Shown here one piece after another: positions 14,342-48,007 of a stretch of 64,000 bases of DNA. Below the pieces are notes generated by a model. It was not told the origin of the DNA and made no database searches. It saw nothing but the letters and a program-made list of their open reading frames with translations. The number at the start of each line of letters is the position of its first letter. Position 1 is the stretch's first letter. Source of the stretch: an uncultured Candidatus Saccharibacteria bacterium (GTDB lineage Bacteria > Patescibacteriota > Minisyncoccia > Phycocordibacterales > PALSA-1337); contig CAYWKB010000001.1 in the NCBI GenBank assembly GCA_964459225.1, positions 354,777-418,776 on the forward strand, in the 5' to 3' direction. The position numbers were made by a program, and so were the translations under genes.

Positions 14342-16102
14342 ATGAATGAAGAAAGGATTACATATTTTGGTCAAACCGATTCAAGAAATAAAAGGGTGAG
14401 TTTTGGTATTAAGGCCAAGGATCGTACTAAACATGTTTATGTAATCGGAAAGACAGGAATGGGAAAGTCTACCTTGCTTGAAAACATGGCTGTTCAGGAT
14501 ATTAAAAATGGTGAAGGTCTCGCTTTTATTGATCCCCACGGCAAGACTGCAGAGTTGCTACTTGAATACGTTCCTGAACATAGAATGAAGGATGTTGTTT
14601 ACTTTGCTCCATTCGATGTTGATTATCCTATTTCATTTAATGTTTTAGAAAGTGTTGATCCAGACAAAAGACATCTAGTTGTTTCTGGTCTAATGAGTAC
14701 TTTCAAAAAGATTTGGCAAGATGCATGGTCTGCACGTATGGAATATATTCTAACAAATACCTTGCTTGCTTTGCTTGAATATCCTGATGCAACACTTCTT
14801 GGAGTAAATCGTATGTTGTCTGATAAGGAATTTAGAAATAAGGTTGTTGCATGTGTTACAGACTCTGCTGTAAAGGCATTTTGGACACAAGAATTTGCAA
14901 ATTATACCGAAAGAATGGCGGCTGAAGCAGTTCCCGCAATTCAAAACAAAATCGGTCAATTTACCGCTAATGCACTTATTCGAAATATGATAGGTCAGCC
15001 AAAATCATCATTTGATATTAGAAAAATGATGGATGAGGGTAAGATTTTCATAATTAACCTTTCAAAAGGAAGAATAGGCGAGTCAAATGCAAATCTTTTG
15101 GGTGGAATGCTTATTACAAAAATATATTTGGCTGCACTTTCACGCGCAGATATTCCTGATAGGGTTTTAAAGAAATTACCGAATTTTTATCTCTTTGTGG
15201 ACGAGTTCCAGTCTTTTGCAAATGAAAGTTTTGCGGATATTTTGTCTGAGGCTAGAAAATACAAATTAAATCTAACAATTGCACATCAATATATTGAGCA
15301 AATGGAAGATGAGGTTAGAGCAGCTGTTTTTGGTAACGTTGGTACCATGATTGTCTTTCGCGTTGGTGCATATGATGCAGAAATATTAGAAAAAGAATTC
15401 GCACCTCAATTTACCGCAGAGGACATTGTTAATCTTGGAATTTATCAAATATATTTAAAATTAATGATTGATGGTATTAGTTCTGCACCTTTTTCTGCTA
15501 CTACCTTGCCTCCAATAGATAAACCAGAAAGTTCAAGTATGGAAAAGGTTATACAGTCATCACGTGAACAATTTGCAAATAAACGTTCCGATGTTGAAAA
15601 AGCAATCGATGATTGGATGGTGCCTATTAAGCCGACTCCAAAAGCTATGGCCCCAAAATCAAATAATATAATTCAATCAAATCAGATACCTTCAAATCCA
15701 ATACCTAAACCTAATCCAATTTCACCCACACCTACACCTACACCCACTCCAGCTCCAACACCTGCGCCTGTATCTATACCTGTGCAAAAACCAGTTATCC
15801 CTACTCCAATGCCAATTCAAAAAGTTGAGCAACCTTTTAAAAAAGCTTTTTCAGAAATTAAAATTGAAGAGAAGAAGCCCGAAAGTGTAAAACCAATATC
15901 ATTAAATTCATTAGTCAAAAATAAAAAAGAAGCAGACCCTAGAAAGATAGATGATTTAAAGAGTGCATTAGCATCAGTTCTTGCAAATAAAAAAGTTGAA
16001 GAAAAACCAAAGACAAAGGAAGAAAAAAATAATACCGAAAAAAAGACAATTCCAAATGAAATTCCAGAGGATGTACTAAAAAACGTACTTAAGGTAGAGT
16101 AA
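14342..16102 (+). CDS. VirD4/TraD/TraG-like (type IV coupling protein / DUF87-type) P-loop ATPase with a low-complexity Pro/Thr/Lys-rich C-terminal tail
   Basis: Walker A VIGKTGMGKSTL, Walker B YLFVDEFQSF, and ARKYKLNLTIAHQY, typical of TrwB/TraD-type NTPases. Residues ~430-586 are PT- and K/E-rich. Confidence 0.55.
   Translation: MNEERITYFGQTDSRNKRVSFGIKAKDRTKHVYVIGKTGMGKSTLLENMAVQDIKNGEGLAFIDPHGKTAELLLEYVPEHRMKDVVYFAPFDVDYPISFNVLESVDPDKRHLVVSGLMSTFKKIWQDAWSARMEYILTNTLLALLEYPDATLLGVNRMLSDKEFRNKVVACVTDSAVKAFWTQEFANYTERMAAEAVPAIQNKIGQFTANALIRNMIGQPKSSFDIRKMMDEGKIFIINLSKGRIGESNANLLGGMLITKIYLAALSRADIPDRVLKKLPNFYLFVDEFQSFANESFADILSEARKYKLNLTIAHQYIEQMEDEVRAAVFGNVGTMIVFRVGAYDAEILEKEFAPQFTAEDIVNLGIYQIYLKLMIDGISSAPFSATTLPPIDKPESSSMEKVIQSSREQFANKRSDVEKAIDDWMVPIKPTPKAMAPKSNNIIQSNQIPSNPIPKPNPISPTPTPTPTPAPTPAPVSIPVQKPVIPTPMPIQKVEQPFKKAFSEIKIEEKKPESVKPISLNSLVKNKKEADPRKIDDLKSALASVLANKKVEEKPKTKEEKNNTEKKTIPNEIPEDVLKNVLKVE
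15724..15770 (+). repeat. Short CCnACn microsatellite-like repeat encoding (PT)n/(PA)n
   Basis: CACACCTACACCTACACCCACTCCAGCTCCAACACCTGCGCCT, locally GC-rich. Confidence 0.5.
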
Positions 16103-19385: not shown

Positions 19386-20075
19386 ATGAATTCAGATATT
19401 ATTAAAAGATTTAATAAAGTCAAAGTCTCTAGAACCTTTCTTAATATATTAGAGATTTATAATTTTAGTAATAAAAAAGTATTAGATATTGGATGTGGTT
19501 ATGGTGAGTATTTGAAGCTTTTCGGTACAAATAGTCAAGGTATAACAACTACAGATGATGAGGTTCGATATGGTAGTGAAAATAATATAAATATAGTTAA
19601 AGGTAATATTGAGGAGATTAATAATATGATAGGTCTAGGTAAATTTGAAGCCATATGGGCAAATAATCTATTTGAACATCTATCATCACCACATGTTTTT
19701 TTAATAAACTTAAAATCAATATCAACGCCTGACACAAATTTGATACTGGGAGTACCTGTTGTACCTAAAATTGTAAATTTGATGAAAATATCTAAATTTA
19801 GAGGTGCACTTGCGTCAAATCATATAGGTTTTTATACAAAAGACACGTTAAAACTAACAGTTAAGTATGCGGGATGGAAAGTTATTGAGATAAGACCATT
19901 TATATTTAAGATAAAAATCCTAGATTACCTTGCATCATTTTTTGCTCCTCATTTATATATTGTTGCAAAAAATGATGCTTCATTCAGGTATCCTGAAAAG
20001 AAGCAGAAAGAATGGAGGGGTGAAAAAATGTACAGTAACTTATTTAAAATAACAGAAAATGAAACTATTAATTAA
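19386..20075 (+). CDS. Class I SAM-dependent methyltransferase
   Basis: Motif I VLDIGCGYGEY. 229 aa. Confidence 0.7.
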   Translation: MNSDIIKRFNKVKVSRTFLNILEIYNFSNKKVLDIGCGYGEYLKLFGTNSQGITTTDDEVRYGSENNINIVKGNIEEINNMIGLGKFEAIWANNLFEHLSSPHVFLINLKSISTPDTNLILGVPVVPKIVNLMKISKFRGALASNHIGFYTKDTLKLTVKYAGWKVIEIRPFIFKIKILDYLASFFAPHLYIVAKNDASFRYPEKKQKEWRGEKMYSNLFKITENETIN

Positions 20076-21531
20076 ATACATTATTTCAGGTGGTACTGCG
20101 GCTATTGTTGATTTATCGATTTTGCATTATTTGGATGTTAGAGGATTTCATCATATTGTAAGTGTAAATATAGCATTTTTAATTGCATTTATTGTTAGTT
20201 TTTCATTTCAAAAATACTGGACATTTTCGGATTCAAAAAGTTATGAAGTACATAAGCAATTAAGGGATTATTTTATAGTATCAGTTATAAATGTCTTTCT
20301 TAATAATTTGATTATACAGTTTATTATTAAAATAAATTTAGTATCTGAAATACCAATACTTAGGGAAATCGTATGGGCGCAAATTATATCGTCTGCAATT
20401 ATAGCCGTTGAGTCTTTTGTGATTTATAGATTTTTTATTTTCAAAAAATCAACTAACAATTTGAATAATGGTTCAAATAAAAAAGGTATTTTGATTATTA
20501 CACAAAAAGTTGATAAAGATGATTCAATATTAGGATTTTTCCATGATTGGATAATGGAATTCTCAAAACAATATAATAATGTCATAGTTATTTGTTTGCA
20601 AAAAGGAAATTATGATTTGCCTAAAAATGTCGAAATATTAAGTATGGAAAAGGATAAAAATCCTAATAAATTTAAGTATATTTATTTACTTAATAAATTT
20701 GCATTTGAAAATAGAAATAAATATGATTACGTATTTTGCCATATGTCACCACTCTATGTTATTTCTGGTTTTGTGATATGGAAGATATTGCATAAAAAAA
20801 TCTCAATGTGGTATGTTCATAGAAATGTTGATTTAAAACTTAAAATTGCTAACTTACTTTCTGATTATATTTTTTCTTCTACAAAAGAAGGCTACAGAAT
20901 AAATACTAAAAAAGTTAAATATCTTGGGCAAGCGATTTTGGTAAATAAATTTCCATATTTAAAACACAAAATCCTTGATAAAAATACTAATATCAATATA
21001 TTAACAGTGGGTAGAATCACAAAAATCAAAAATTTAGATTATCTCATTAATACAATTAAGATACTTAAAGATAAAAATTATAATGTAAATTTAAATATTA
21101 TTGGAGAAGCAAAAATATCAAGTGATATAGAGTATTATAATGAATTAAAAAATCAAATTTCAAAACTAGGTCTGAATAGCAATATTAATTTTATAGGTTC
21201 AGTTAAATATGATGAATTAGCACATTACTATAATATTAACGATATATTTGTTAATTTAGCGCCTAGTGGTGGTCAAGATAAGGCGGTACTTGAAGCTATG
21301 TCATCTGGTATTCCAACCTTTGTTGCTAATACTGGATTTAAGGACTTTTATGGTGAATTTGCCTCAGATATGATATTTGAGTTAAATAATGTTGTGAGTT
21401 TATCAGATAAAATTGTGCAATATATAGATCAAGATAATCAAATACAAATAACTGAAATTATAAATAAAAATATAATTCAAAAGGCAGATTTATCTATTTT
21501 GATAAGTAATATCAGTAATGAATTAAAATAG
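20059..21531 (+). CDS. GtrA-like 4-TM domain fused to a GT4 glycosyltransferase
   Basis: N-terminal ~130 aa has 4 TM segments with the GtrA pattern (GGTAAIVDL...FSFQKYWTF). The C-terminus is GT4 (GGQDKAVLEAMSSGIPTFV). Confidence 0.65.
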   Translation: MKLLIKYIISGGTAAIVDLSILHYLDVRGFHHIVSVNIAFLIAFIVSFSFQKYWTFSDSKSYEVHKQLRDYFIVSVINVFLNNLIIQFIIKINLVSEIPILREIVWAQIISSAIIAVESFVIYRFFIFKKSTNNLNNGSNKKGILIITQKVDKDDSILGFFHDWIMEFSKQYNNVIVICLQKGNYDLPKNVEILSMEKDKNPNKFKYIYLLNKFAFENRNKYDYVFCHMSPLYVISGFVIWKILHKKISMWYVHRNVDLKLKIANLLSDYIFSSTKEGYRINTKKVKYLGQAILVNKFPYLKHKILDKNTNINILTVGRITKIKNLDYLINTIKILKDKNYNVNLNIIGEAKISSDIEYYNELKNQISKLGLNSNINFIGSVKYDELAHYYNINDIFVNLAPSGGQDKAVLEAMSSGIPTFVANTGFKDFYGEFASDMIFELNNVVSLSDKIVQYIDQDNQIQITEIINKNIIQKADLSILISNISNELK

Positions 21532-21533
21532 GT

Positions 21534-22994
21534 ATGGATTACAAAAACAGTCATTTAAAATATTTATTATTAGTACCAGTAGTTATTTTATTGTTTTATA
21601 CATTTACTAATTTAACCGAAAGTCCTGCTACTTGGATGGATGAGGGTATTATTGTACAGACGGCAAGGAATTATTCTGTATCAGGTTTTTCTGGTTTAAG
21701 GGTCGATCCAGAAAATGTGGTTTCTGCTGGCTATGTTACAACAAGTTATCCAGTAACGATGCCAATTGCTACGGTTTTTAATATATTTGGAATATCTCTT
21801 TTTAATGCGAGAATGGTTATGGCTATTTTTATTCTGATTCTTGTATTTTTTGTTTATAAAAATAATAAAAAATATTTAGAAAATGATTACTATTTACTAG
21901 CATTATCACTAATATTATTGGTGTCATTTCCACCATTATATGGGCATGGCAAAAACGTTTTAGGTGAAGTTCCTGGCATGGCTCTACTGTTTATCTCAGT
22001 TTATCTTTTTGATAAACTTATTTCTAATCACGATGACAAGGATATTTCAAAATATAAACAATATTCACTATTATTCCTATCCTCATTATTTTTTGGATTA
22101 GTTTTTGTGACAAAGCCTATTTTTATTATTTTGATTCCCGCTATCTTTATTACATTTTTTATTAAAAATAGATCAAACTTATTAAGTTTATTTGATAGGA
22201 AAAATGTTTCGCTTTATGTCATGTCTTTGATTGCTTTTTTTATACCTGTGCTTTTTTGGATAAAATTTCAATTTCATGGGGAGGGACTTGCCTATATGCT
22301 ATCTATATATGTTAATCCACAAAGTAATAGTTTAGAAAGCAACATAATCATTAATATTAAAAGATTTTTTACTGAATCACAGCCAATATACACATTATTG
22401 TTAATGGTAATTTGGACAATAGCAATTATTAAAAATAAATTCAATAAAATTAAAATAGGTAGTACTCAATTATTTTTATATATATTTTCACTACTGATAC
22501 TTGTTGCATATATAAGGACAACTGGATATTACAGATACTTTTTTATTGCAGAATTCATCGCTTTAACTTTCTTTATTTCAAATCTCAAATGCCTATTTAA
22601 AAATAAGATAATTATTTATTTTATTGCGATACCACTTATCTTGTATCAAATTTATAATTTAAATTATTCGAGTTGGGTTTCAAAATCAATTGATAATTCA
22701 CAGAGTGAAGATTTACAATTATTACTTTCAAATATATCAGATAAAAATGAGATCTTTGTGTACCAAGCGCCAGAAATAGTGACATTTATTAAAGGTGAAA
22801 ACTATTCTCAATATTTGCAAATCACATCAAGTATCCAGGTTGGTAGCACAAGTTTAACTAGGCTGGCCGAAAAAAAGCCTGAACTAATAGTCACAAACAG
22901 TATGTATAATGATGTTGTGTACAAAATCGTCGGTGATGCATATGAGGGCTATGCAAGTATAGGAAAATATAGTTTTATAAGAAAAAAGCATTGA
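21534..22994 (+). CDS. GT-C fold polytopic membrane glycosyltransferase (ArnT/PMT_2-like, polyprenyl-phosphate-sugar dependent)
   Basis: ~11 predicted TM helices. The first extracytoplasmic loop carries WMDEGIIVQTARNY, a DE/Y motif characteristic of the ArnT/PMT_2 family. Confidence 0.55.
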   Translation: MDYKNSHLKYLLLVPVVILLFYTFTNLTESPATWMDEGIIVQTARNYSVSGFSGLRVDPENVVSAGYVTTSYPVTMPIATVFNIFGISLFNARMVMAIFILILVFFVYKNNKKYLENDYYLLALSLILLVSFPPLYGHGKNVLGEVPGMALLFISVYLFDKLISNHDDKDISKYKQYSLLFLSSLFFGLVFVTKPIFIILIPAIFITFFIKNRSNLLSLFDRKNVSLYVMSLIAFFIPVLFWIKFQFHGEGLAYMLSIYVNPQSNSLESNIIINIKRFFTESQPIYTLLLMVIWTIAIIKNKFNKIKIGSTQLFLYIFSLLILVAYIRTTGYYRYFFIAEFIALTFFISNLKCLFKNKIIIYFIAIPLILYQIYNLNYSSWVSKSIDNSQSEDLQLLLSNISDKNEIFVYQAPEIVTFIKGENYSQYLQITSSIQVGSTSLTRLAEKKPELIVTNSMYNDVVYKIVGDAYEGYASIGKYSFIRKKH

Positions 22995-23017: not shown

Positions 23018-24610
23018 GTGTGTATACATAAAGATATGAAAACGGTTGTAGTGATACCAACATATAATGAAAGAGATACTGTAGAATCAATAATTCATAG
23101 AGTATTTGAAACTGTGCCTAATATAAATGTTTTAATCGTAGACGATAATTCTCCCGATAAGACATCAGAAGTGGTGGAGGCATTAATGAACAAATTTCCA
23201 AATTTATCTATTTTGAAGCGTAAAGGTAAAGAGGGTTTAGGTAAAGCGTATGTACATGCTTTTAAAGTTATATTATCTGACCATAACATCGAGAGGATAA
23301 TAACAATGGATGCAGATCAAAGTCATGATCCAAGTTATATTCCATCAATGCTTAAGTTATCAAAAGATTACGATTTGGTTATCGGATCTAGATATGTTAA
23401 AGGTGGTGATATAGTTGGTTGGGAAAAAAGTAGGAAATTTTTGAGTTATTTTGGAAATTTATATTCAAGATTAATTACGAGAATCAAGGTTAAAGATTTA
23501 ACTGCTGGATACAATGTCATATCTACTGATTTTTTAAGATTAATTAATTTGGATAATATCGGTAGTGCAGGGTATTCATTTACAATTGAATTTAAAAATT
23601 GTTTTTCTAGAAGCGGTGCTAGAATATATGAATTTCCAATAATTTTTAGAAATAGAGTTGTTGGAGAGTCAAAGATATCTAAAAAAATAATATATGAAGG
23701 ATTACTGATACCTTGGAGATTAATCTCTAAGGGAATATATGTAAATCTAACATGTATAGCCTGTGACAATAGTAAACATATCTTTTTTTCAAGAAAGAAT
23801 AGTTTTACTCTATATAAATGTGTTGAGTGTAGTAAAATTGTGATAAACCCAATCCCTAAAAGTTTTGATAACGTATATAATCAAGAATATTTTTCTGGTG
23901 CAAAAAACGGTTTTGGTTATGTAAATTATGATAAAGATAAAGAGGCTATGAAAAACGTTTTTCATAAATATCTAGATAAAATAGAGCAATACATAATCAA
24001 TAATAAAAATAAAAAAATACTAGATATAGGTGCTGCTACTGGATTTTTCATGAAAATAGCAATTAGCAAAGGCTTTAAAATTAAAGGCATTGAGTATTCA
24101 AAGGATGCTGCTGAATCAGGTAAAAAGAACGGACTAAATATTAGTGTTGGCACAATCGAAGATTATGATAGTAAAAAAGAAAAATTTGATGTTGTAACTA
24201 TGTTTGATGTTATTGAACATATTCCTAATCCAAAATTTAGTATTAAGGCAGTTTCAAATTTACTTGTTAAAAATGGACTATTACTTATTAATACTCCAGA
24301 CTCAGGAAGCTTTTTTGCTAAGCTTATGGGAAGCAAATGGCATTTGATTGTACCACCTGAACATATACATTATTTTAATAAAAAATCTCTCATCACATTG
24401 CTTGAATCAAACGGTTTTGAAATTGTAGAATACACAAAGATAGGTAAAAAATTTACTCTGGAATACGTCTCATCAATGCTCGCAAGATGGACTAATGTTG
24501 CTGTGTTTGATAGTACAACTAATATGTTGAAAAAAAGCTTTATTGGACAACTATCAATTCCCATAAATTTGAGAGATAATATGTTTGTCATGGCAAGAAA
24601 AATAAAATGA
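23018..24610 (+). CDS. Polyprenyl-phosphate sugar synthase (Dpm1/GtrB-like GT2) fused to a Cys4 zinc ribbon and a class I SAM methyltransferase
   Basis: N-terminus VVVIPTYNERDTVESII...LIVDDNSPDKT...GKEGLGKAYVHAF is Dpm1/GtrB-like. Residues ~250-285 are CIACDN...CVECS. The C-terminus has MT motif I ILDIGAATGFF and FDVVTMFDVIEHI. The start may be the Met at 23036. Confidence 0.75.
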   Translation: MCIHKDMKTVVVIPTYNERDTVESIIHRVFETVPNINVLIVDDNSPDKTSEVVEALMNKFPNLSILKRKGKEGLGKAYVHAFKVILSDHNIERIITMDADQSHDPSYIPSMLKLSKDYDLVIGSRYVKGGDIVGWEKSRKFLSYFGNLYSRLITRIKVKDLTAGYNVISTDFLRLINLDNIGSAGYSFTIEFKNCFSRSGARIYEFPIIFRNRVVGESKISKKIIYEGLLIPWRLISKGIYVNLTCIACDNSKHIFFSRKNSFTLYKCVECSKIVINPIPKSFDNVYNQEYFSGAKNGFGYVNYDKDKEAMKNVFHKYLDKIEQYIINNKNKKILDIGAATGFFMKIAISKGFKIKGIEYSKDAAESGKKNGLNISVGTIEDYDSKKEKFDVVTMFDVIEHIPNPKFSIKAVSNLLVKNGLLLINTPDSGSFFAKLMGSKWHLIVPPEHIHYFNKKSLITLLESNGFEIVEYTKIGKKFTLEYVSSMLARWTNVAVFDSTTNMLKKSFIGQLSIPINLRDNMFVMARKIK

Positions 24611-25749
24611 AAATAATATTTTTTTCAGCAGATTATATTCCTACTGGTGGTGGTATTGCCACATACGTTCATGAGCTTGTTCATAATACCTATAGCCACC
24701 CTTTGGTTACCGATACCAAATTAATTGTCTTTGGTAATAAAAATCCAAGGAAAGAACAATTTGAAAATGGTCTTGGTAAATTATATATAAAGACATATTC
24801 AAGTATTAATTTTTTATATACTGGTATTATGGTTTTTTTCTATTTTATTAATAATTTTAAATATGATATTTTTCATTCACTTAATTTATTTCCATTAGGA
24901 TTTTGGACAGTTTTTTGGGGTAAGATTTTCAATAAAAAAACTATTATAACTTTTTACGGAACTGATGCATGTGATACAAAGGCAAGTACAAAAACATTAT
25001 TTTTGAAAAAATGGTCAATAGTTAATTCTTCATTACCTTTGACGATTAGTGACTTTACTAAAACTCAGGTTGAAAAAAGGTATAATTTAAATCCTAATTT
25101 AATTAAATTCATTCATCCAATTGTTCCTGAAATAATGCTTAAAAATAATAAAGATAATTTTGATATAGATAAAATAAAGAGCGAAAATAATATTGAAAAA
25201 GATGATTTTGTAATACTAACCGTTTCAAGACTGGTTAAAAGGAAAGGTACAGATGATTTAATAAAGGCTATAGGCATCTTGAATGACAATAATATAAAAC
25301 TATTAATAATAGGTGATGGAAAGGAAAGGGAAAACTTAGAGAAGTTGATAATAGATAACAACCTCAGCAAAAACGTTAGATTATTAGGCAAGGTTAAGGA
25401 CATAACACCCTATTATCATTTAGCCGATGTATTTGCGCTTACTTCATATATTATCGAAAATGATGGTGATTTTGAGGGTTTTGGACTTGTTATGACCGAG
25501 GCCCAGTCATACGGCTTACCGGTAATAGGTACAAAAAGTGGTGGTATACCTGAGACATTCAATCATATGCAGACTGGAATATTGTTACCTGAAAGGGATA
25601 TTAAAGCCATTGCAAATGCAATTAAACAAATAAAAGATGATGATGTATTACAAAAGACAATGTCAGATAATACCAAAGATTTTTTGATTAATAATTTTGG
25701 CTATAAAAATTCAATTAATAAATATATAGAGCTTTGTAAGTCTCTATGA
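24607..25749 (+). CDS. Glycosyltransferase family 4
   Basis: EGFGLVMTEAQSYGLPVIGTKSGGIPE. Confidence 0.8.
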   Translation: MKIIFFSADYIPTGGGIATYVHELVHNTYSHPLVTDTKLIVFGNKNPRKEQFENGLGKLYIKTYSSINFLYTGIMVFFYFINNFKYDIFHSLNLFPLGFWTVFWGKIFNKKTIITFYGTDACDTKASTKTLFLKKWSIVNSSLPLTISDFTKTQVEKRYNLNPNLIKFIHPIVPEIMLKNNKDNFDIDKIKSENNIEKDDFVILTVSRLVKRKGTDDLIKAIGILNDNNIKLLIIGDGKERENLEKLIIDNNLSKNVRLLGKVKDITPYYHLADVFALTSYIIENDGDFEGFGLVMTEAQSYGLPVIGTKSGGIPETFNHMQTGILLPERDIKAIANAIKQIKDDDVLQKTMSDNTKDFLINNFGYKNSINKYIELCKSL

Positions 25750-25763
25750 TATAGTAAATAAAT

Positions 25764-26750
25764 ATGAAAGTCTCTGTAATATTACCAAATGGTAAAAGTG
25801 ATTATCTGGCAAATACAGTATTGGACGGTTTGCTTGAACTGTCGACAATTGATAAGGATTTGGTTTTTAAGATCACTACAAATTACCCTAATCCTTTTAA
25901 TATTAAAGAATATGAGTTGAGTAATTCTGAATTTACGGATTTTGCGAATGATGCAGATCTTATTATTTTATGTTGGGGGAAAAATAGTACTAATTATGAT
26001 TTAGCAAATAATATAAATAAATGGAATAAAACTATTTTTATTGATGGTTCCGAATTAGGTAAAAATAATAGATTTGATAAAAAGATAATACAAGAAGTTT
26101 TAGATGGTACATATAAGGGTATTGGTGCTATAGATCAGGATATGTTAATTAAATGTAAGGCATATTATAGAAGAGAAAAGCCGTATATAAATGGCATTAT
26201 TCCTTTTCCATTTGGTATTGAAAATAGATATAGGAAATTTTATAAAAAGGACATAAAAAGAGATATTGATTTTACTTGTATATTTGGACAAGATGAATAT
26301 CCGATTATGAGAAGGCAAGTAAAAGAATATTTAGAAAAGTTTTGTAAGAAAAATAATTTGATTTGTAAGACAAAAAGAACAAGTGATTTTAATTTTGATG
26401 ATAATACTAAGATTGCTGGCAGAGATGAGTTTTATGAAATATTATCAAGAACTAAAGTCGGTATATCTATAGGAGGTGGTGGTTTTGATACGGCTAGATT
26501 TTGGGAGATATTGGGTAGTGGCGCTATACTCATGACTGAAAAAATAGATATAGATAATACTAATTTAAAATATAAAAGAATAAAAGAATTTAGTGATTTT
26601 GAAGATTTTAAGATAAAATTAGACCAAATGGCCAATTATTTAAAGAATGAATACAATAATGATATTGAAATATTGGATGATGAGTATATTGATGTGATTT
26701 CTAAGCATTCTACTATTGCGAGAATAAAAGATATCTTAAATCATAAATAA
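25764..26750 (+). CDS. Hypothetical protein, possible GT-B-type glycosyltransferase
   Basis: The only support is a weak C-terminal GGGGFDTARFWEILGSGAI motif that resembles the GT1/GT4 sugar-donor loop. Confidence 0.3.
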   Translation: MKVSVILPNGKSDYLANTVLDGLLELSTIDKDLVFKITTNYPNPFNIKEYELSNSEFTDFANDADLIILCWGKNSTNYDLANNINKWNKTIFIDGSELGKNNRFDKKIIQEVLDGTYKGIGAIDQDMLIKCKAYYRREKPYINGIIPFPFGIENRYRKFYKKDIKRDIDFTCIFGQDEYPIMRRQVKEYLEKFCKKNNLICKTKRTSDFNFDDNTKIAGRDEFYEILSRTKVGISIGGGGFDTARFWEILGSGAILMTEKIDIDNTNLKYKRIKEFSDFEDFKIKLDQMANYLKNEYNNDIEILDDEYIDVISKHSTIARIKDILNHK

Positions 26751-27655
26751 TGAATAATACTAAATGTATAATATGTAATGCAATAACCAATCCTTTTATG
26801 ATAAAGGATAACTACAGTCTGTTTAAGTGCAGTGAATGTGCTTTGGTATTTATGAATCCATTACCAGAGCAAAAGTTTTTAAATAATGAAGTTTATTCTT
26901 TTGAGTCTGGTTATCAATCAAATAAAAACTCAGATTTATCTAAAGTTGTTCCATCAAAAAAGACAATAGATATAGTTAACTTTTTAATTAAAGAAAATAG
27001 ATATAAAAATATTTTAGATATTGGTTGTTCAAGTGGGGAGTTTATACACTATGCAAAATCAAAGGGTTTTAATGTTGCTGGGGTAGAATTAAACAAAAGG
27101 ACAGCCCAAATTGCTCAAAATAATGGTCTAAGAGTGTTTAATGGCCTATTATCTGATGCGAAATATCAGAATGGTGAATTCGATGTGATATTTTTGGGTG
27201 ATGTAATAGAACATGTTTTATCACCAAGTGATTTAATCAATGAATGCAAAAGAGTTTTAAGTAGTAACGGTATTATAATAGTTTCAACCCCTAATCTTGA
27301 TTGCTTGTGGTCAAATATAACTTTACTATTTTACAGATATTTTAAAATACCTTGGTCATCTGTTACACCCCCGTACCATACGTTTCAGTTTTCAATAAAT
27401 AATATTGATTTATTTTTTAATAATCTCGGTTTTAACAAAATATCTGAATGGTTTTATAAACCACCTAGACTTATGTACGAATTAGGTTCATTGCATTTAT
27501 TAAAAAAATATAAAAAGTCTAAAAATATACTTGATTTATTATTTATGATTTTTTCTTTTGCTTTATATTCTGTAACATACTATATCTGTTATTTATTAAA
27601 TATTTTTCTAAAAAAGGATTTTTCACATTTAGTGATCTATAAAAAAAATGATTAA
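26750..27655 (+). CDS. Zinc-ribbon + class I SAM methyltransferase (paralog of the MT domain at 23018..24610), C-terminal TM segment
   Basis: CIICNA...FKCSECAL Cys4 ribbon, then ILDIGCSSGEF and FLGDVIEHV. The same architecture as the C-terminal half of the preceding fusion. Confidence 0.7.
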   Translation: MNNTKCIICNAITNPFMIKDNYSLFKCSECALVFMNPLPEQKFLNNEVYSFESGYQSNKNSDLSKVVPSKKTIDIVNFLIKENRYKNILDIGCSSGEFIHYAKSKGFNVAGVELNKRTAQIAQNNGLRVFNGLLSDAKYQNGEFDVIFLGDVIEHVLSPSDLINECKRVLSSNGIIIVSTPNLDCLWSNITLLFYRYFKIPWSSVTPPYHTFQFSINNIDLFFNNLGFNKISEWFYKPPRLMYELGSLHLLKKYKKSKNILDLLFMIFSFALYSVTYYICYLLNIFLKKDFSHLVIYKKND

Positions 27656-28667
27656 AGTATATCTATCTCCAAAAATAGAAGGATTAAAATATATTGATTT
27701 AATTAATCCTAATTTAAATATTAAAAATAATAAAACTTTTTTCGATGATTTTAATGTATTCAATGATTTGAGTGAAAATGTAGTAGAAATAGTTTCTGAT
27801 ATAGATCAAGCTCAATATATTATGATTCCATACAATATATTGCATATAGATAATTTAAATAATTATCTTAATTCAATTAGAGATATTTCAAAATCAAAAA
27901 AGATTATTGCATTTATTATAGGTGATTCTGATATCGATATTAAAATTGATAATTCAATAATATTTAGAATGTCTTGTTATGGTATAAAAATAAGAGAAAA
28001 TGAAATTATTATTCCTGCATATGCAAATGATTTATCAAAATATGATGCAATTAAGTTTCGAGTTAAAAATGAGATGCCAGTTATAAGCTTTTGTGGCTGG
28101 GCAGGTGTACAGGGATTTTATTCAAAAATAAAATATTTCATTAAAAATTATTTAATATTAAAAGGTCCGTACAAGCAGGGAATTTATTTTAGAAGGAAAG
28201 CAATAAAAATATTAAATAAATCAAAATTAGTTAAGACAAATTTTATAATCAGGGATTCATACAGCGCAAATGCTAAAACAATTAAAATAGATCCAAAGAT
28301 TGCAAGGAAAGAATATATTGATAATATTGTTAATTCTGATTTTGTACTTTGCCCTAAAGGTGACGGAAACTTTTCTGTTAGATTTTATGAAGTATTAAGC
28401 CTCGGTAGAATACCGATACTCATAGATACTGATATGATATTGCCTTTAAATAAGGATATTGATTATAGTAAATTTATTTTAAGAATTAATTATAAAGATA
28501 TTCATAATATTGATAAAATAGTCTCTGATTTCTATAATAAAATCACTGAAGATGAATGGATTAAAATGCAATCGATTGCAAGACAGGAATTCGTAAATCA
28601 TCTAAATATTGTATCTTTTTTTAAATTTATTTTGACTAAGGAAAACATTGAAAAATATATAAAATAA
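27648..28667 (+). CDS. Exostosin-like (GT47-like) glycosyltransferase
   Basis: C-terminal FVLCPKGDGNFSVRFYEVLSLGRIPILIDTDMILPL matches the exostosin motif F.LCP.GD..S.R..DA...GCIPVI. Confidence 0.55.
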   Translation: MIKVYLSPKIEGLKYIDLINPNLNIKNNKTFFDDFNVFNDLSENVVEIVSDIDQAQYIMIPYNILHIDNLNNYLNSIRDISKSKKIIAFIIGDSDIDIKIDNSIIFRMSCYGIKIRENEIIIPAYANDLSKYDAIKFRVKNEMPVISFCGWAGVQGFYSKIKYFIKNYLILKGPYKQGIYFRRKAIKILNKSKLVKTNFIIRDSYSANAKTIKIDPKIARKEYIDNIVNSDFVLCPKGDGNFSVRFYEVLSLGRIPILIDTDMILPLNKDIDYSKFILRINYKDIHNIDKIVSDFYNKITEDEWIKMQSIARQEFVNHLNIVSFFKFILTKENIEKYIK

Positions 28668-28671
28668 AAAA

Positions 28672-29787
28672 ATGAAAATTGCATATATTGAAAATATAAG
28701 ACTACCAACGGAAAAGGCGCATGGAATACAAATAATGAAAATGTGTGAGGCTTTTGCTTTAAATGGTCATGAAATAACCCTTATAGTTCCAGATAAACAC
28801 AATATACATAGTATAGATCCTTTTAAATACTATTCGATTTCAAATAAATTTAATATTATAAAAGTGTGGGTACCAAATACAATATTTTTGGGAAAGATTG
28901 GCTATTGGATACAAACTTTGTATTTCTCACAGGTCGCGTCTTTTTATATTCGTAAAATTAAATCAGATATAGTTTATTCAAGAGATGAATTGATTTTATT
29001 AAACTATATACTAATATTTAAAAACATTGTCTGGGAGGCTCATAGAGGTAGTTGGAATGTTGCATCTAAAATATTATCAAGATTTTCTAGAAAAATAATT
29101 GTAATCAGTAACGGTTTGAAGGATTTTTATTTAGATAAAAATAATAAATTATCACAAAAGATATTAGTATCACCTGATGCTGTTGATTTAGAAATGTTTA
29201 ATATTGTTATGAGTAAGGAAGAATGCAGAGATAAATTAAAATTAGATAAAGAAAAGAAAATCATACTATATTCAGGTCATTTATATGAATGGAAGGGTGC
29301 ATATCTGTTGGCGGAGGCAAGTAAATATTTCGATAATAATACAATAGCTGTGTTTGTGGGTGGAACACAATCAGACATAATTAAATATAAGGAAAAGTAT
29401 GAAAGCGACAAATGTATATTTATAGGTAAAAAAGATTATTCAGATATACCATACTATTTAAAAGCAGCAGACATTTTGGTATTACCAAATACACTAAAGG
29501 ATAATATGGGAAGTAAATACACATCACCGCTTAAATTATTTGAATACATGGCAAGTGGAACTTCCATCTTGGCTTCAGATGTTCCGGCGATAATGGAAGT
29601 TTTGAATGAAAATAATTCATTTATATTTAAATCTGATAACGTAAATGATTTAAATAATAAGATAAACTACATTTTAAATAACTTAAACAGTGAAATTGTA
29701 AATGATAGAGTTATAAAAGCTCAAAATGATGTAAAACAATATTCATGGGATAATCGTGCATCAAATATTATCAACTCAATTTTTTAG
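28672..29787 (+). CDS. Glycosyltransferase family 4
   Basis: SPLKLFEYMASGTSILASDVPAIMEV. Confidence 0.75.
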   Translation: MKIAYIENIRLPTEKAHGIQIMKMCEAFALNGHEITLIVPDKHNIHSIDPFKYYSISNKFNIIKVWVPNTIFLGKIGYWIQTLYFSQVASFYIRKIKSDIVYSRDELILLNYILIFKNIVWEAHRGSWNVASKILSRFSRKIIVISNGLKDFYLDKNNKLSQKILVSPDAVDLEMFNIVMSKEECRDKLKLDKEKKIILYSGHLYEWKGAYLLAEASKYFDNNTIAVFVGGTQSDIIKYKEKYESDKCIFIGKKDYSDIPYYLKAADILVLPNTLKDNMGSKYTSPLKLFEYMASGTSILASDVPAIMEVLNENNSFIFKSDNVNDLNNKINYILNNLNSEIVNDRVIKAQNDVKQYSWDNRASNIINSIF

Positions 29788-31342
29788 CAAGTCTAATTGC
29801 TAATGCGCAAATTGTATATGTAGGATTGGCACAACCACTAGTAGGGAAAACTGAACTACTACATATATATAAATTATTTATATCATGTACTCGTAGATCA
29901 TTTGAAACTACTGAGTGATTTTTATCTAATCCCATAATGGTACCTCCGATATGATGACTTGCATCAGAGTTTATATCAAATCTGTCTTTAAGAGTTGATT
30001 TTAAATAGCCAATATTATTTTGCCTAAAATATTCATCTATTTCATTATGTAATTGCACTAAAGACATTTTGTCTAATTCACTTAAATTTAAATGAACAAT
30101 TGGTAATTTATTTCCAAATACATCTTTTTGATTTGAAAGGGTAATATAATTATCTTTTCTAGGTTCCATCTCCATGAAATTCCTCAATCTGATCTTATCT
30201 ATCGGTAATTTAATATTTTTAAATAATCTATGAAAAATATAATATGTTATAGGTATAATGTTGATTATGATTTGATAAATTGATTTCAATAAATTATTTT
30301 TGGTATTCATATCATCACCAGTTTCATTCCAATCTCTTAGATTTACAACTCCTTTCTGGCTATTTTTCCAGAATGATAAAAATGATGTGAATTTCTTAGT
30401 TAATCCAATTAATTCTGTAATACCTTGATTGTCCGTCCAAGGGAATACTGGTTCAAATCTTACATAACTATTCAATACACCTAATTCCTTTTGTCTTTCC
30501 TCGCTAATTCTTATTCCAGCTGATTTTGCCCATCCTTTTTCTAAATAGCCAAATAAATAAGTTAGATTATATATCTTTTTATTTAAATAAATAATACCGG
30601 AATTATTTTTTGGATGATTCATTATAAATTTACCTATGATATTATTTTTATCAATATTTTTATATTTATCTTTAATAATTAACATTAATCTCGTACTTTC
30701 AATACCTCCAGCACATATTACGAATTTCTTTGATCTGATTTTTCTTTTTTCTTTTGTATTCAAATTACATATAGTTATATTATCAATATCGTTTTCATTC
30801 ACAATTTCAAAATCAATTACTGTTTCTCCTACAAATTGTTTTATGTTTTTGTTTGTAAATACTTCGGATAATTTGTGTGCAAAGTTCCATGCTGGGTCTT
30901 TTGCTATAAATATTTTTTCACTTAAATTTTTTGAATTTATTTTAAAATCGGCACTATCTTTTAATTGTCTAATATCCTCCAGACTAAATCTTTCATAATC
31001 TGCAAAACCGTATTTGTTTAAAAGCTTGTAGTATTGAGTTAATTCGCTGTATTGTAGAGGCCATTTTTGTATATCTATTTCATCCATCGGTGCTGATAAT
31101 CCAGCCCAAGTAGTTGATGTGCCACCTAATACTCTTTCTCTTGAATTGTCTTTAATTTTAATCTCTCCAGTGCTTATTACCTTTTTTAATTGAGAGTATT
31201 CTTTATTTTTCTTATTTAAACCGCTTTCGATTATGCATATTTTTTTATTACTATCTTTTAATTCATTGCACAATGTAAGTCCTGCTGGTCCAGTACCTAT
31301 AATACATATATCGTATTCATCTTTTATTATCTCTCCCTTCAT
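29771..31342 (-). CDS. GMC-family FAD-dependent oxidoreductase
   Basis: N-terminal Rossmann DICIIGTGPAGL. C-terminal GMC_oxred_C motif NLYICSSSVFPTSGCANPTYTICALAIRLAKK. Confidence 0.75.
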   Translation of the reverse strand: MKGEIIKDEYDICIIGTGPAGLTLCNELKDSNKKICIIESGLNKKNKEYSQLKKVISTGEIKIKDNSRERVLGGTSTTWAGLSAPMDEIDIQKWPLQYSELTQYYKLLNKYGFADYERFSLEDIRQLKDSADFKINSKNLSEKIFIAKDPAWNFAHKLSEVFTNKNIKQFVGETVIDFEIVNENDIDNITICNLNTKEKRKIRSKKFVICAGGIESTRLMLIIKDKYKNIDKNNIIGKFIMNHPKNNSGIIYLNKKIYNLTYLFGYLEKGWAKSAGIRISEERQKELGVLNSYVRFEPVFPWTDNQGITELIGLTKKFTSFLSFWKNSQKGVVNLRDWNETGDDMNTKNNLLKSIYQIIINIIPITYYIFHRLFKNIKLPIDKIRLRNFMEMEPRKDNYITLSNQKDVFGNKLPIVHLNLSELDKMSLVQLHNEIDEYFRQNNIGYLKSTLKDRFDINSDASHHIGGTIMGLDKNHSVVSNDLRVHDINNLYICSSSVFPTSGCANPTYTICALAIRLAKKLS

Positions 31343-46219: not shown

Positions 46220-48007
46220 TTATTTACTACTAATAATTTTATGAAAATATGAATTTTCTGAAGCCCTAAGTTCACTTGGTGTTCCAGATTCTACTATATT
46301 ACCATTCCTCAATACAATTAATTTATCTGCACCCTCAACCGTAGTTGGTCTGTGCGCAATAATTATAACCGTTACATCCCCACGTAGTCTATCAATTGCC
46401 TGTTGAACCATTGTTTCTGATTCATTATCAAGAGAGCTTGTGGCTTCGTCTAATATAATTATCTTAGGTTTTCTTGCTAGCACTCTTGCAAGAGCTATTC
46501 TCTGTCTTTGTCCACCAGATATCTCCATACCTCTTTCGCCAACATGTGATTTAAATTTATTTGGAAGGGAATTTATAAAATCATAAATATTCGCAATTTT
46601 TGTGGCATTGATCATGTCTTCTTCACTAATATTAGTATTATGAAGCTTAATATTATTTTCAATAGTATCATTTATTAGAAAAACATCCTGTGAGACGTAG
46701 CCTATGTTATTTCGCCAAACGTCCTTCCTAATATCTGAAATATTTATTTCTCCGATTGATATACTACCTGATTCAGGTTCAATTAGTTTTAATATCAAAT
46801 CTACAATAGTTGTTTTACCGGAACCAGAAGGGCCGATAATACCAGTAATCTTTCCATGATCAATTCTCATGTTTATGTTATTCAGTGTATTATCTTTCCC
46901 ATCATATTTAAAATACAGGTCTTTTATGATTATATCTGCCTTAAAATCTATATCACTTATATTTCCATCATTTTCTTGGTTCTGTATAGCTTTAGCCTCA
47001 TAATCAAATGCTGTTTTTAGGAAAGGGTATAATGAATTAATATTTTGTATCCTAGCTTGTCCATCTTGTATATATGTAAAAATCTTATTTATTGCATAAA
47101 CTATCACAGCAAATGACGCAAAATTAAAGTCAGTTAATTTATATGAAAATATAAATAATCCTATAATCAATAAAACACTTAATGGTTGAGTTACCACATA
47201 TGTAAGACTGGTTAAAACAGAAGTCTTTATTTCGATGTTTTTTAAATCCTCAAAAAACGATGTACCGTGCTTGTACACCTCTGATTCAAGGTGCATTGCT
47301 TTAATTGTCTTCATTCCAATCATACTTTCATTGATATGATTGGCTACCTTTTTTAATATATCTGCACTCTGATGTGACACAATTCTTACCCTATATACTA
47401 ATGGTTTGAAGGCTAAAAAAAATATTCCGCCCATTGAAATTGTTATACCTATAACAATTGGAGAAATGTTAAATGCAATTACTACATAAATAATAGTATT
47501 AATCATAAGAATAACTGTACTACTAGTGTATGAAAGCAGGGCACTATAAGTGTTTATGTCTGTCATCAAGACTTTTTCGAGATAACCGATCTTTTGCTTT
47601 GATAAATAGGTCCAATTTGAGTTTAGGGTAAGTTTGAAAAGTTTTGATCTAGTCTTTTTAATATAATCATTTTTTATTCTATCTGTTATATAATTGGTTA
47701 GAAATACCATTAATGATTTACCTATAAACAAAAGCGCGATTATTATTAAAAGATATTTAAGTTCGTATGGTAGCCCAATATAATTAAAAATATTTTCAGT
47801 GAATTTAGATATAGAATCTGTTGTCTGATTTTGGTCCTTAACTACAAATGAAAACAAAGGGATTATACTGTTGATACCAATACCTTCAAAAAGCCCCCCT
47901 AAGAAACTGACGATTATTAATACTATAATCCTTGTCTTATATGTTCCAAAAGCTCTCCAGAATATTTTTAATGTAAACATTAAACGACTCTCCTTGTTGT
48001 TTTTCAT
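46220..48007 (-). CDS. ABC exporter, fused permease-ATPase (MsbA/PglK-like; candidate lipid-linked glycan flippase)
   Basis: 6-TM N-terminal domain. NBD with GPSGSGKTT, LSGGQRQRIALAR and IIILDEATSSLD. Confidence 0.85.
   Translation of the reverse strand: MKNNKESRLMFTLKIFWRAFGTYKTRIIVLIIVSFLGGLFEGIGINSIIPLFSFVVKDQNQTTDSISKFTENIFNYIGLPYELKYLLIIIALLFIGKSLMVFLTNYITDRIKNDYIKKTRSKLFKLTLNSNWTYLSKQKIGYLEKVLMTDINTYSALLSYTSSTVILMINTIIYVVIAFNISPIVIGITISMGGIFFLAFKPLVYRVRIVSHQSADILKKVANHINESMIGMKTIKAMHLESEVYKHGTSFFEDLKNIEIKTSVLTSLTYVVTQPLSVLLIIGLFIFSYKLTDFNFASFAVIVYAINKIFTYIQDGQARIQNINSLYPFLKTAFDYEAKAIQNQENDGNISDIDFKADIIIKDLYFKYDGKDNTLNNINMRIDHGKITGIIGPSGSGKTTIVDLILKLIEPESGSISIGEINISDIRKDVWRNNIGYVSQDVFLINDTIENNIKLHNTNISEEDMINATKIANIYDFINSLPNKFKSHVGERGMEISGGQRQRIALARVLARKPKIIILDEATSSLDNESETMVQQAIDRLRGDVTVIIIAHRPTTVEGADKLIVLRNGNIVESGTPSELRASENSYFHKIISSK

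Follow-up and report, generated by a model that had tools for sequence, protein, structure and literature searches.

Three-component systems are a general bacterial route for decorating surface glycans or proteins outside the cytoplasm. Editing of a polyprenyl-phosphate sugar before it is flipped has precedents in ArnD (a deformylase), NaxD (a deacetylase), and DprE1/DprE2 (epimerisation), and we know of no description of its methylation at this stage. WbdD of E. coli O8/O9a is a kinase-methyltransferase with a coiled-coil ruler. The three-component (Gtr-type) extracytoplasmic systems include GtrA/GtrB/Gtr*, CsbB/GtcA/YfhO, and ArnC/ArnEF/ArnT (PMC11127046). A SAM methyltransferase that is physically joined to glycan-assembly enzymes is found in WsaE of the Geobacillus S-layer glycan (PMC2943079), and AglP of Haloferax is a SAM methyltransferase that acts on a dolichol-phosphate-linked glycan (PMC3871713). 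For a fusion gene in the window, i.e., the whole stretch of 64,000 nucleotides that was analyzed, we tentatively propose a three-component system of the Gtr type in which an integral methyltransferase (MT) would methylate the polyprenyl-phosphate sugar before flipping.

The fusion gene (ORF1) is located on the plus strand at positions 23036 to 24610 and encodes 524 aa. It is listed from a GTG at 23018 (530 aa); the probable start is the ATG at 23036, as indicated by a database twin (P0001; 100% identical, 524 aa) and by the alignment to Met1 of P. furiosus DPMS. Pfam assigns Glycos_transf_2 (PF00535) to aa 11 to 169 (2e-28) and Methyltransf_23 to aa 313 to 471 (1.1e-26). A Dpm1/DPMS-type GT2 catalytic domain (aa 1 to 232; 23036 to 23731, plus strand) is followed by a Cys4 zinc ribbon (C240, C243, C262, and C265, plus the conserved P272; 23753 to 23851, plus strand) and by a class I SAM methyltransferase fold (23951 to 24607, plus strand), which consists of a Rossmann core (aa 306 to 474) and a C-terminal helical insert with the last strand (aa 475 to 524). 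The AF2 model of the two-domain protein (pLDDT, 90.2; pTM, 0.85) has three short strands in the ribbon region (aa 247 to 270).

The GT2 half matches P. furiosus DPMS (PDB 5mlz) with an E value of 1.7e-31 and keeps the DPMS residues, which bears out the Dpm1-like synthase that had been recognized in the sequence-only reading. By alignment, PfDPMS Glu12, Asp39, Asp89/Asp91, His94, Arg117, Arg131, Ser135, Arg202, and Lys208 are identical in the fusion, and the equivalent positions are invariant or at least 90% conserved among 42 fusion homologs. The DAD motif of the D92-A-D94-x-S-H97 stretch aligns to PfDPMS Asp89-Ala-Asp91, with D94 invariant and D92/A93 at least 90% conserved (n = 42); R119, R133, and S137, which align to the lipid-phosphate residues Arg117/Arg131/Ser135, are invariant in the 42 homologs; R207, K213, E12, D37, and H97, which align to Arg202, Lys208, Glu12, Asp39, and His94, are at least 90% conserved. 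A difference is Gln93 of PfDPMS, which is Ser in the fusion. Human DPM1 and M. smegmatis Ppm1 are members of the DPMS family without transmembrane (TM) segments. Therefore, the absence of such a segment from the fusion protein, in which a hydropathy search found no hydrophobic segment (top 19-aa value, 1.17), does not exclude it from that family. Where other DPMSs carry a type III TM domain or a type I single TM anchor, its C terminus is instead a 290-aa zinc-ribbon methyltransferase. In PfDPMS, Arg117/Arg131/Ser135 form the acceptor-phosphate site, "conserved in bona fide DPMSs," Arg202 and Lys208 belong to the A-loop, Asp39 is guanine binding, and His94 contacts the mannose (PMC5526996). Furthermore, the GT2 half is 40 to 49% identical to ordinary Dpm1-like genes of ~245 aa from many phyla, and in P0120 a GT2 of this kind (52% identity) is joined to a PMT mannosyltransferase. 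The GT2 half is thus of the Dpm1/DPMS type and is predicted to transfer a hexose to polyprenyl phosphate, most likely mannose from GDP-mannose, the identity of the sugar being read solely from the conserved DPMS residues.

The ribbon-MT module occurs a second time in the window, in a stand-alone paralog of 301 aa (ORF2; 26750 to 27655, plus strand) with a ribbon (aa 6 to 37), a Rossmann MT (Methyltransf_23, aa 73 to 231; 5.3e-18), and a hydrophobic C-terminal helix (aa 260 to 286; nucleotides 27527 to 27607). Both ORFs thus carry the same Cys4 ribbon and class I MT, as had been claimed: the motif reads CIACDN..x..YKCVEC in ORF1 and CIICNA..x..FKCSEC in ORF2. The paralogy of the two modules, which an alignment was to establish, is evident from BLASTP (ORF1 aa 243 to 467 versus ORF2 aa 3 to 228; 30% identity, E value of 1e-30, with the Cys4 motif inside the aligned range) and from the profile-profile comparison of the two families (probability, 100%; E value, 3.7e-51), which spans 279 columns, beginning at the ribbon and ending at the C terminus. 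In 42 fusion homologs and 43 ORF2 homologs, conservation of the four ribbon cysteines is complete or at least 90%, and the shared motif is far beyond chance. In the fusion, the MT has motif I (D330-G332-G336), E353, E394-H395, W435, P440-P441-x-H443, Y477, and D514. Across 85 sequences of both families, the D-x-G-x-x-x-G SAM motif, the motif II acidic residue, and about 15 more polar residues are invariant; therefore, the ribbon-MT is likely catalytic.

GT2-MT fusions account for 83 of the 240 proteins returned by the homolog searches with both ORFs (all 83 from the ORF1 search, a few of them truncated); when representatives were taken at 50% identity, about 40 of the top 150 were fusions as well. 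They form an uncharacterized family that is widespread among the Patescibacteria; in a locus outside this group, LPG_synthase_TM, PMT_2, GT2-MT, and epimerase follow one another. No paper describing the GT2-MT coupling was found, in keeping with the earlier remark that it was not known as a described one; some members already carry the generic NCBI name [quoted passage not shown] In a neighbor-joining tree, the fused clade contains nested stand-alone MTs. In the split forms, the MT gene is directly 3′ of a Dpm1-like GT2 gene of 233 to 239 aa in all four cases examined, with an overlap of 16 to 28 nucleotides in three of them and abutting genes in the fourth. A contig scan for taxonomic spread was dominated by a generic GT2 peptide pattern and served only as a negative control: 76 of its 80 loci carried plain Dpm1-like genes from other phyla, 3 to 4 of which had an MT neighbor. 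Some Dpm1-like genes of Patescibacteria have no adjacent MT (L006 and L035), an observation that speaks against our best reading.

The MT-like half could also be noncatalytic, serving as a scaffold or for membrane docking in place of the TM domain that type III DPMS has and the fusion lacks, or the fusion could be an assembly or frameshift artifact. TM-less Dpm1 enzymes other than the fusion need a partner, and the fusion is devoid of any TM segment; moreover, a frameshift could mimic the few-base overlap of the split forms. Yet the MT half is not hydrophobic, its SAM motif and polar residues are fixed across both families as described above, and the 83 fusion clusters come from independent samples and several sources, for which reason an assembly artifact is rejected. 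We regard this explanation as extremely improbable.

The module is also found in other fusions: with a GtrA_DPMS_TM domain (P0253 and P0271), in the order GT2-TM-MT with a TM insert that is the GtrA_DPMS_TM domain (P0035) or has no Pfam match (P0308, a cluster of 97 members), with PMT_2 (P0344), with the MprF-type flippase domain LPG_synthase_TM (P0372), in the reverse order MT-GT2 (P0322), and, in one case, with an SDR epimerase (P0254). A Dpm1-like GT2 is again present in the loci of the GtrA-MT, PMT_2-MT, and SDR-MT fusions; a separate protein with 9 to 10 TM segments is also present with GtrA-MT and SDR-MT, and PMT_2-MT is itself the polytopic GT-C of its locus. In every inspected locus except L092, which lies at a contig end, a polytopic GT-C-like protein adjoins the module or is at most a few genes away. 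This domain-fusion network and the conserved gene order strengthen the earlier suggestion that a sugar, either lipid-linked or nucleotide-bound, may be methylated at the membrane.

The top structural match of the MT of both paralogs is TcaB9, a zinc-domain NDP-sugar C3-methyltransferase. With TcaB9, TylC3, and KijD1 the module shares a Cys4 zinc domain N terminal to a Rossmann MT and a similar overall fold, and to this extent the likeness to NDP-hexose methyltransferases held. It did not extend to the family domains: PF08421 (Methyltransf_13) had no match in the whole proteins (E ≤ 0.01) or in the isolated ribbons (E ≤ 10), and PF08484 (Methyltransf_14), the C-terminal NDP-sugar-binding domain of TcaB9, was not detected in either paralog. 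The ribbon-MT is therefore a fold relative of TcaB9 and not a member of its family. A search of the PDB with a ribbon-only profile returned generic Elf1/GATA/S27e ribbons (Elf1 type, 3e-4), TcaB9 not being among them. Identity to the TcaB9/KijD1/MtmC/TylC3-type enzymes is just 14 to 17%, and the module is ~120 aa shorter; its context is a lipid carrier, whereas theirs is an antibiotic deoxysugar. Tentative candidates for counterparts of the TcaB9 catalytic residues Tyr76, His181, Tyr222, Glu224, and His225 are Y281, H395, and E442-H443, with alignment offsets that are roughly compatible; TcaB9 was not among the top five alignments, and a shorter fragment gave no match. A quinone methyltransferase was also considered: the UbiG model TIGR01983 gives 57.9 bits for ORF1 and 47.1 for ORF2 (cutoff, 102.95), and the context is entirely glycan. 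For these two reasons, the UbiG/UbiE reading was rejected; the resemblance to UbiG is that of class I enzymes in general. Although the top matches of the MT at the sequence level are generic, this overwhelming glycan setting means that the refutation set out in the sequence-only reading does not apply.

Among solved structures, TcaB9 is the nearest to the MT, and its substrate is a soluble NDP-sugar and not a lipid-linked one, which counts against our best reading. The MT may accordingly be thought to methylate the nucleotide sugar first, as TcaB9 and TylC3 do and possibly on an SDR-made keto-sugar, after which the GT2 would load the methylated sugar and the fusion would serve substrate channeling. 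Methylation at the NDP-sugar level is consistent with the SDR epimerase-MT fusion and with the SDR neighbors that recur outside Patescibacteria. However, both PF08421 and the PF08484 domain, which in TcaB9 closes over the dTDP-sugar, are absent, the GT2 retains the DPMS residues that touch unmodified mannose, including the His94 equivalent, and in the window no SDR gene adjoins the fusion gene. In addition, a soluble substrate would not readily explain why the MT is fused to flippase-type and GT-C membrane domains and why the paralog has a hydrophobic anchor. We consider this order of events unlikely. Very unlikely, in our estimate, is that the ribbon-MT works as TcaB9 does, with the polyprenyl-phosphate hexose being oxidized by a conserved GMC oxidoreductase or an SDR, the keto intermediate C-methylated, and the product re-reduced; if true, a DprE1/DprE2-like edit would be combined with methylation, and a branched-chain sugar donor would be assembled wholly on its lipid carrier before a GT-C transfers it.

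The fusion gene is preceded by two genes on the same strand that complete a three-component set with the GT2 at 23036. A GtrA/DPMS_TM flippase-type domain (aa 6 to 128; PF04138, 1.8e-17) fused to a GT4 (PF00534, 1.5e-22) is encoded at 20059 to 21531 and is a candidate lipid-linked-sugar flippase, and a PMT_2-type polytopic GT-C (PF13231, 3.4e-8; ~10 hydrophobic segments, with WMDEG after the first) is encoded at 21534 to 22994 and is a candidate user of the lipid-linked sugar. The syntenic locus L087 has the full set of GtrA, PMT_2, and GT2, the GtrA-GT4 fusion being two separate genes there; L001 has PMT_2 and GT2, and L093 has GtrA-MT, GT2, and an unclassified 10-TM protein. The PMT_2 orthologs of L001 and L087 are 37 to 39% identical to that of the window. 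A 529-aa neighbor without Pfam match in L002 was tried as a further homolog, gave no significant BLASTP match, and represents a second polytopic family. At the edge of the glycan locus, a DedA(VTT)-PAP2 fusion (51665 to 52951, plus strand), probably for polyprenyl-phosphate recycling, was found; such a fusion also adjoins the GT2-PMT fusion P0120.

ORF2 has other neighbors. Directly 5′ of it, a conserved 328-aa protein to which no function was assigned (25764 to 26750, plus strand; weak Glyco_trans_1_2 match) has a 47% identical ortholog at the same position in L087, and the end of ORF2 is overlapped by a gene for a GT47 (exostosin)-like glycosyltransferase (27648 to 28667, plus strand; PF03016, 2.9e-12). 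This adjacency is conserved in L087 and in longer contigs carrying P0087 (L001 has a truncated P0087 copy). Since ORF2 is linked to a GT47-like enzyme and not to a GT2 synthase, the ribbon-MT type is not restricted to polyprenyl-phosphate monosaccharides, a point that also counts against our best reading.

The latter pairing, with a cytoplasmic GT, would suit an MT that acts on another acceptor, e.g., on a residue within an undecaprenyl-diphosphate-linked oligosaccharide or, like WsaE/WbdD caps, at the chain end, the GT2 fusion being only a tether to the membrane-bound assembly complex. With 8 MT domains encoded in the locus alongside more than 10 cytoplasmic GTs, many methylations of the main glycan are to be expected; gene fusions are abundant in Patescibacteria genomes. 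Chain-capping MT-GT fusions are known, e.g., WsaE (PMC2943079). Against this, the fusions recur in varied arrangements, also outside Patescibacteria, and specifically with the synthase, flippase-type domain, and GT-C of the polyprenyl-phosphate sugar branch; the strict GT2-MT adjacency in the split forms points to the same branch and not to the main chain; and a Wzm/Wzt pair was not seen in the window, where the sole ABC exporter observed is a fused ABC_membrane and ABC_tran protein (46220 to 48007). Action on another acceptor is, in our view, rather unlikely.

With methylation of the lipid-linked monosaccharide as the preferred reading, the fusion protein would be a bifunctional, membrane-peripheral enzyme of a Gtr-type extracytoplasmic glycosylation system. 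On the cytoplasmic face, the GT2 domain would move a hexose, most likely the mannose of GDP-mannose, to polyprenyl phosphate, as suggested by homology and by the conservation of catalytic and acceptor-binding residues. The zinc-ribbon MT, probably packed on the GT2 domain, would then transfer a methyl group from SAM to the sugar head of the fresh polyprenyl-phosphate sugar, a step to which we give somewhat less than an even chance. Gene context and the fusion network suggest that the GtrA/DPMS_TM protein encoded two genes 5′ flips the methylated lipid-linked sugar and that the PMT_2 GT-C encoded immediately 5′ passes it to a surface glycan or protein. The ORF2 paralog may catalyze an equivalent reaction on another membrane-bound intermediate, with its own hydrophobic anchor and its conserved GT47-like partner.

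If this holds, a "four-component" variant of the three-component system would exist. The known edits of lipid-linked donors are deformylation, deacetylation, and epimerisation, and the repeated fusion of an MT to synthase, flippase-type domain, or GT-C would add methylation. The GT2-MT variant is common among Patescibacteria, which live as episymbionts by way of their cell surfaces, the chemistry of which is almost unexplored. The fusion is a one-polypeptide enzyme with cheap substrates that lends itself to testing. It would also allow a genome-based prediction of methylated surface sugars, and it would carry the fold of zinc-ribbon sugar methyltransferases, known from antibiotic deoxysugar pathways, into envelope biogenesis.

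In sum, the locus resembles the three-component systems (PMC11127046) in having a GT2 polyprenyl-phosphate sugar synthase, a GtrA-family flippase-type domain, and a GT-C encoded side by side, but the synthase is of the TM-less Dpm1 type and not of the GtrB type, and a SAM methyltransferase is built into it or, in relatives, into the flippase-type domain or the GT-C. With ArnD, NaxD, and DprE1/DprE2 it would share the logic of a lipid-linked monosaccharide edited on the cytoplasmic face before export, although the chemistry would be methylation, carried out by a domain of the synthase polypeptide itself. The GT domains of WsaE are polymerizing rhamnosyltransferases, whereas the GT2 of the fusion is of the nonpolymerizing DPMS type; AglP is a stand-alone protein that methyl-esterifies an oligosaccharide; and WbdD joins its MT to a kinase and a ruler, where the fusion joins it to a GT2.

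ORF1 (23018..24610, + strand; listed with a GTG start at 530 aa) encodes a GT2-methyltransferase (MT) fusion, and ORF2 (26750..27655, + strand; 301 aa) a stand-alone paralog of its ribbon-MT module. A database protein of 524 aa (P0001) is 100% identical to the ORF1 product, and because its N-terminal sequence, MKTVVVIPTYNER, lines up with Met1 of the P. furiosus DPMS (PfDPMS; PDB 5mlz), the true start is most likely ATG 23036. Pfam assigned Glycos_transf_2 (aa 11-169, 2e-28) and Methyltransf_23 (aa 313-471, 1.1e-26) to ORF1 and Methyltransf_23 (5.3e-18) to ORF2. The sequence-only reading had claimed that the two genes share a ribbon-MT module with the same Cys4 ribbon, and this was borne out: ORF1 aa 243-467 and ORF2 aa 3-228 are 30% identical (E 1e-30) in an alignment that spans the ribbon, and profile-to-profile comparison of the two families gave a probability of 100% and an E value of 3.7e-51, with 279 aligned columns that reach from the first cysteine to the C-terminus. 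Both families have, identical and conserved to at least 90%, the four cysteines, one lysine within the ribbon, a proline and a tyrosine that follow the ribbon, the SAM motif D-x-G-x-x-x-G, an E-H pair behind strand 4, W-x4-P-P-x-H, and Y and D near the end. Since the SAM motifs and the set of polar residues are invariant, we infer that the ribbon-MT is catalytic; that the MT half is a noncatalytic domain, or the fusion an artefact, is highly improbable.

Alignment of the GT2 half with PfDPMS (residues numbered as chain numbering minus 22) matched E12 of the fusion to Glu12, D37 to Asp39 (guanine), D92/D94 to Asp89/Asp91, H97 to His94 (mannose O3), R119, R133, and S137 to Arg117, Arg131, and Ser135, R207 to Arg202, and K213 to Lys208, all of which vary little or not at all across 42 fusion homologs. 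Arg117, Arg131, and Ser135 of PfDPMS have been assigned to the phosphate of dolichyl-phosphate and described as "conserved in bona fide DPMSs" (PMC5526996). Furthermore, the domain is 40 to 49% identical to ordinary Dpm1-like genes of ~245 aa from many phyla and shares 52% identity with the GT2 domain of P0120, a database protein in which GT2 is fused to a PMT protein-O-mannosyltransferase and whose gene adjoins a DedA-PAP2 gene. These conserved residues and identities mark the N-terminal half as a TM-less polyprenyl-phosphate hexose synthase, with mannose as the probable hexose. Hydropathy analysis revealed no hydrophobic segment in the fusion.

By sequence, the MT half matched generic class I families only; its score for UbiG was far below the family cut-off, and the best PDB matches were the uncharacterised MTs 3cc8 and 1vlm. 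AlphaFold models were obtained for the fusion (pLDDT 90.2, pTM 0.85) and for ORF2 (pLDDT 94.3, pTM 0.90), and Foldseek placed KijD1, MtmC, and TcaB9, zinc-domain NDP-sugar C3-methyltransferases, on top for the MT. The likeness to NDP-hexose methyltransferases proposed earlier thus stands at the level of fold but not of family, as PF08421 and PF08484 were not detected by Pfam in ORF1 or ORF2, isolated ribbons included. The ribbon alone resembles a generic Elf1-type ribbon. A TcaB9 fold would suit methylation of an NDP-sugar before transfer; however, TcaB9 has a C-terminal NDP-sugar domain that is missing from the ribbon-MT, which argues against this reading. ORF2-type proteins have a C-terminal hydrophobic helix (median hydropathy 1.74; at least 1.6 in 28 of 43) that the fusion lacks. 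In the AF2 model of ORF2, aa 260-301 form a hydrophobic helix (aa 260-286) and then a strand that turns back to pack against the Rossmann sheet. Such packing points to an anchor that re-enters the membrane or lies in its plane, and not to a helix that spans it.

The protein search placed the fusion in a large uncharacterised family whose sources are all Patescibacteria by name (Paceibacterota, Parcubacteria, Kaiserbacteria, Minisyncoccota) and whose members are called "glycosyltransferase," "dolichol-phosphate mannosyltransferase," or [quoted passage not shown] Among 240 retrieved proteins were 83 GT2-MT fusions (a few truncated), 36 orthologs of the fused MT that stand alone, and 120 of the ORF2 type; a neighbour-joining tree scattered these 36 among the fused clade and set the ORF2 type as outgroup. 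In all four cases examined (loci L001, L005, L087, and L088 on other contigs), the stand-alone MT gene lies directly 3' of a gene for a Dpm1-like GT2 of 233 to 239 aa, overlapping it by 16 to 28 nt in three and abutting it in the fourth. A wider profile search of 1.84 billion representatives, followed by domain HMMs and Pfam, showed that, of the best 150 representatives, about 40 were fusion clusters. In other arrangements, the ribbon-MT is fused to GtrA_DPMS_TM (P0253, P0271), to PMT_2 (GT-C; P0344), to LPG_synthase_TM (P0372), to an SDR epimerase (P0254), and to GT2 in reverse order (MT-GT2; P0322); in GT2-TM-MT proteins, Pfam identifies the TM insert as a GtrA_DPMS_TM domain (P0035) or finds no match for it (P0308; cluster of 97 members). 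The Cys4 ribbon accompanies the MT in every one of these arrangements. A Dpm1-like GT2 is also present at the loci of the GtrA-MT, PMT_2-MT, and SDR-MT fusions, together with a separate protein of 9 to 10 TM segments at the GtrA-MT and SDR-MT loci; at the PMT_2-MT locus, the fusion itself is polytopic. One non-Patescibacteria locus encodes LPG_synthase_TM, PMT_2, GT2-MT, and an epimerase consecutively; the protein occurs on a 5.3-Mb contig as well.

Only 3 to 4 of 76 Dpm1-like loci of other phyla have an MT neighbour. In two Gemmatimonadota loci (L071, 4260-9436, and L050), a Dpm1-like GT2 gene overlaps that of a ribbon-less class I MT, a distant relative of the fused MT (about 1e-10); the pair in L071 lies downstream of an 849-aa ORF, YfhO-like by eye, and a 418-aa polytopic ORF. 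Such pairs represent the GT2-MT coupling in a looser form.

Because the ribbon-MT is variously fused to all three components of the polyprenyl-phosphate sugar branch, and adjacent to the synthase when split, we infer that it is part of this branch. The SDR-MT fusion and SDR neighbours would also suit methylation of an NDP-sugar before transfer but, given the MT fusions with membrane proteins, we consider that order of events unlikely. In our model, the GT2 domain would, by homology, load a hexose, probably mannose, onto polyprenyl phosphate, and the ribbon-MT would methylate the lipid-linked monosaccharide after its synthesis and before flipping. SAM is cytoplasmic and the active sites of GT-C enzymes are extracytoplasmic; hence, the simplest candidate substrate is the lipid-linked monosaccharide once made but not yet flipped, an assignment that is tentative but quite possibly correct.

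Directly upstream of the fusion lie a GtrA_DPMS_TM flippase-type domain fused to GT4 (20059-21531, + strand), which in L087 are separate adjacent genes (2759-3160 and 3162-4235), and a PMT_2 GT-C by Pfam (21534-22994; about 10 hydrophobic segments) with orthologs of 37 to 39% identity in L001 and L087. A second polytopic family without Pfam match directly follows the GT2-MT module in L002 (9535-11124), L005 (9569-11269), L087 (9888-11453), and L088 (9860-11581); these proteins (521 to 573 aa, 9 to 11 hydrophobic segments, two subgroups by BLASTP) are likely an unclassified GT-C-like family. The surrounding glycan locus covers about 35 kb (16107-52951) of a chromosome of ~28% GC and contains more than 10 GT4, GT11, GT47-like, and several GT2 genes, eight MT domains (19386, C-half of 23036, 26750, 31398, 35395, 38770, 39763, and 42072), two SDRs (epimerase/dehydratase), a GMC oxidoreductase, an ABC exporter, a Wzy_C/ligase-TPR protein, and a DedA-PAP2 fusion. 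This content implies a heavily methylated surface glycan. ORF2 is preceded by a gene for a 328-aa protein (25764-26750, + strand; sub-threshold Glyco_trans_1_2 match only), possibly a glycosyltransferase and an unclassified partner of ORF2, and overlapped by a GT47-like gene; L087 has the same three-gene arrangement, with a 328-aa ortholog of 47% identity. The many MTs of the locus, the pairing of the paralog ORF2 with GT47, and the precedent of WsaE (PMC2943079) would fit an MT that acts on another lipid-linked glycan, with the GT2 fusion only a tether, which we regard as somewhat unlikely. The GMC-family oxidoreductase (29771-31342, - strand; pyranose-oxidase-like C-terminus, TIGR02462 4.9e-20, below cut-off) is conserved in the syntenic L087 (13689-15050, - strand); a sugar oxidase of this kind is unusual inside a glycan locus and could yield a keto-sugar. 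The DedA (VTT)-PAP2 fusion (51665-52951, + strand) recurs on another Patescibacteria contig (L085, 3061-4344), where it adjoins P0120; this recurrence hints that the fusion recycles the lipid carrier in a unit linked to Dpm1-like synthases. A VirD4/TraG-type coupling ATPase (14342-16102, + strand; PF10412, PF02534) with a low-complexity, Pro/Thr/Lys-rich tail of ~170 aa is encoded just upstream of the glycan locus. The flanks of the window carry housekeeping genes (NusB-NUDIX fusion, RNase III, SMC, RNase R, TrmD), and no tRNA genes or Rfam families at gathering threshold were found in 1-64000.

In sum, every part either belongs to a known family or is related to one by fold: DPMS, the Zn-ribbon sugar MT fold, and the Gtr-type three-component glycosylation system (PMC11127046). 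AglP is known to methylate a glycan linked to dolichol phosphate (PMC3871713), and WsaE is a known MT-GT fusion (PMC2943079). Some fusion members already bear a generic "bifunctional" name in databases. In the literature, as far as covered, we found no description of an MT built into the lipid-carrier-charging synthase, the flippase-type domain, or the GT-C of a three-component system. Lipid-linked sugars are edited by ArnD, NaxD, and DprE1/E2, and the proposed MT step would be an analogous editing, with methylation as its chemistry.
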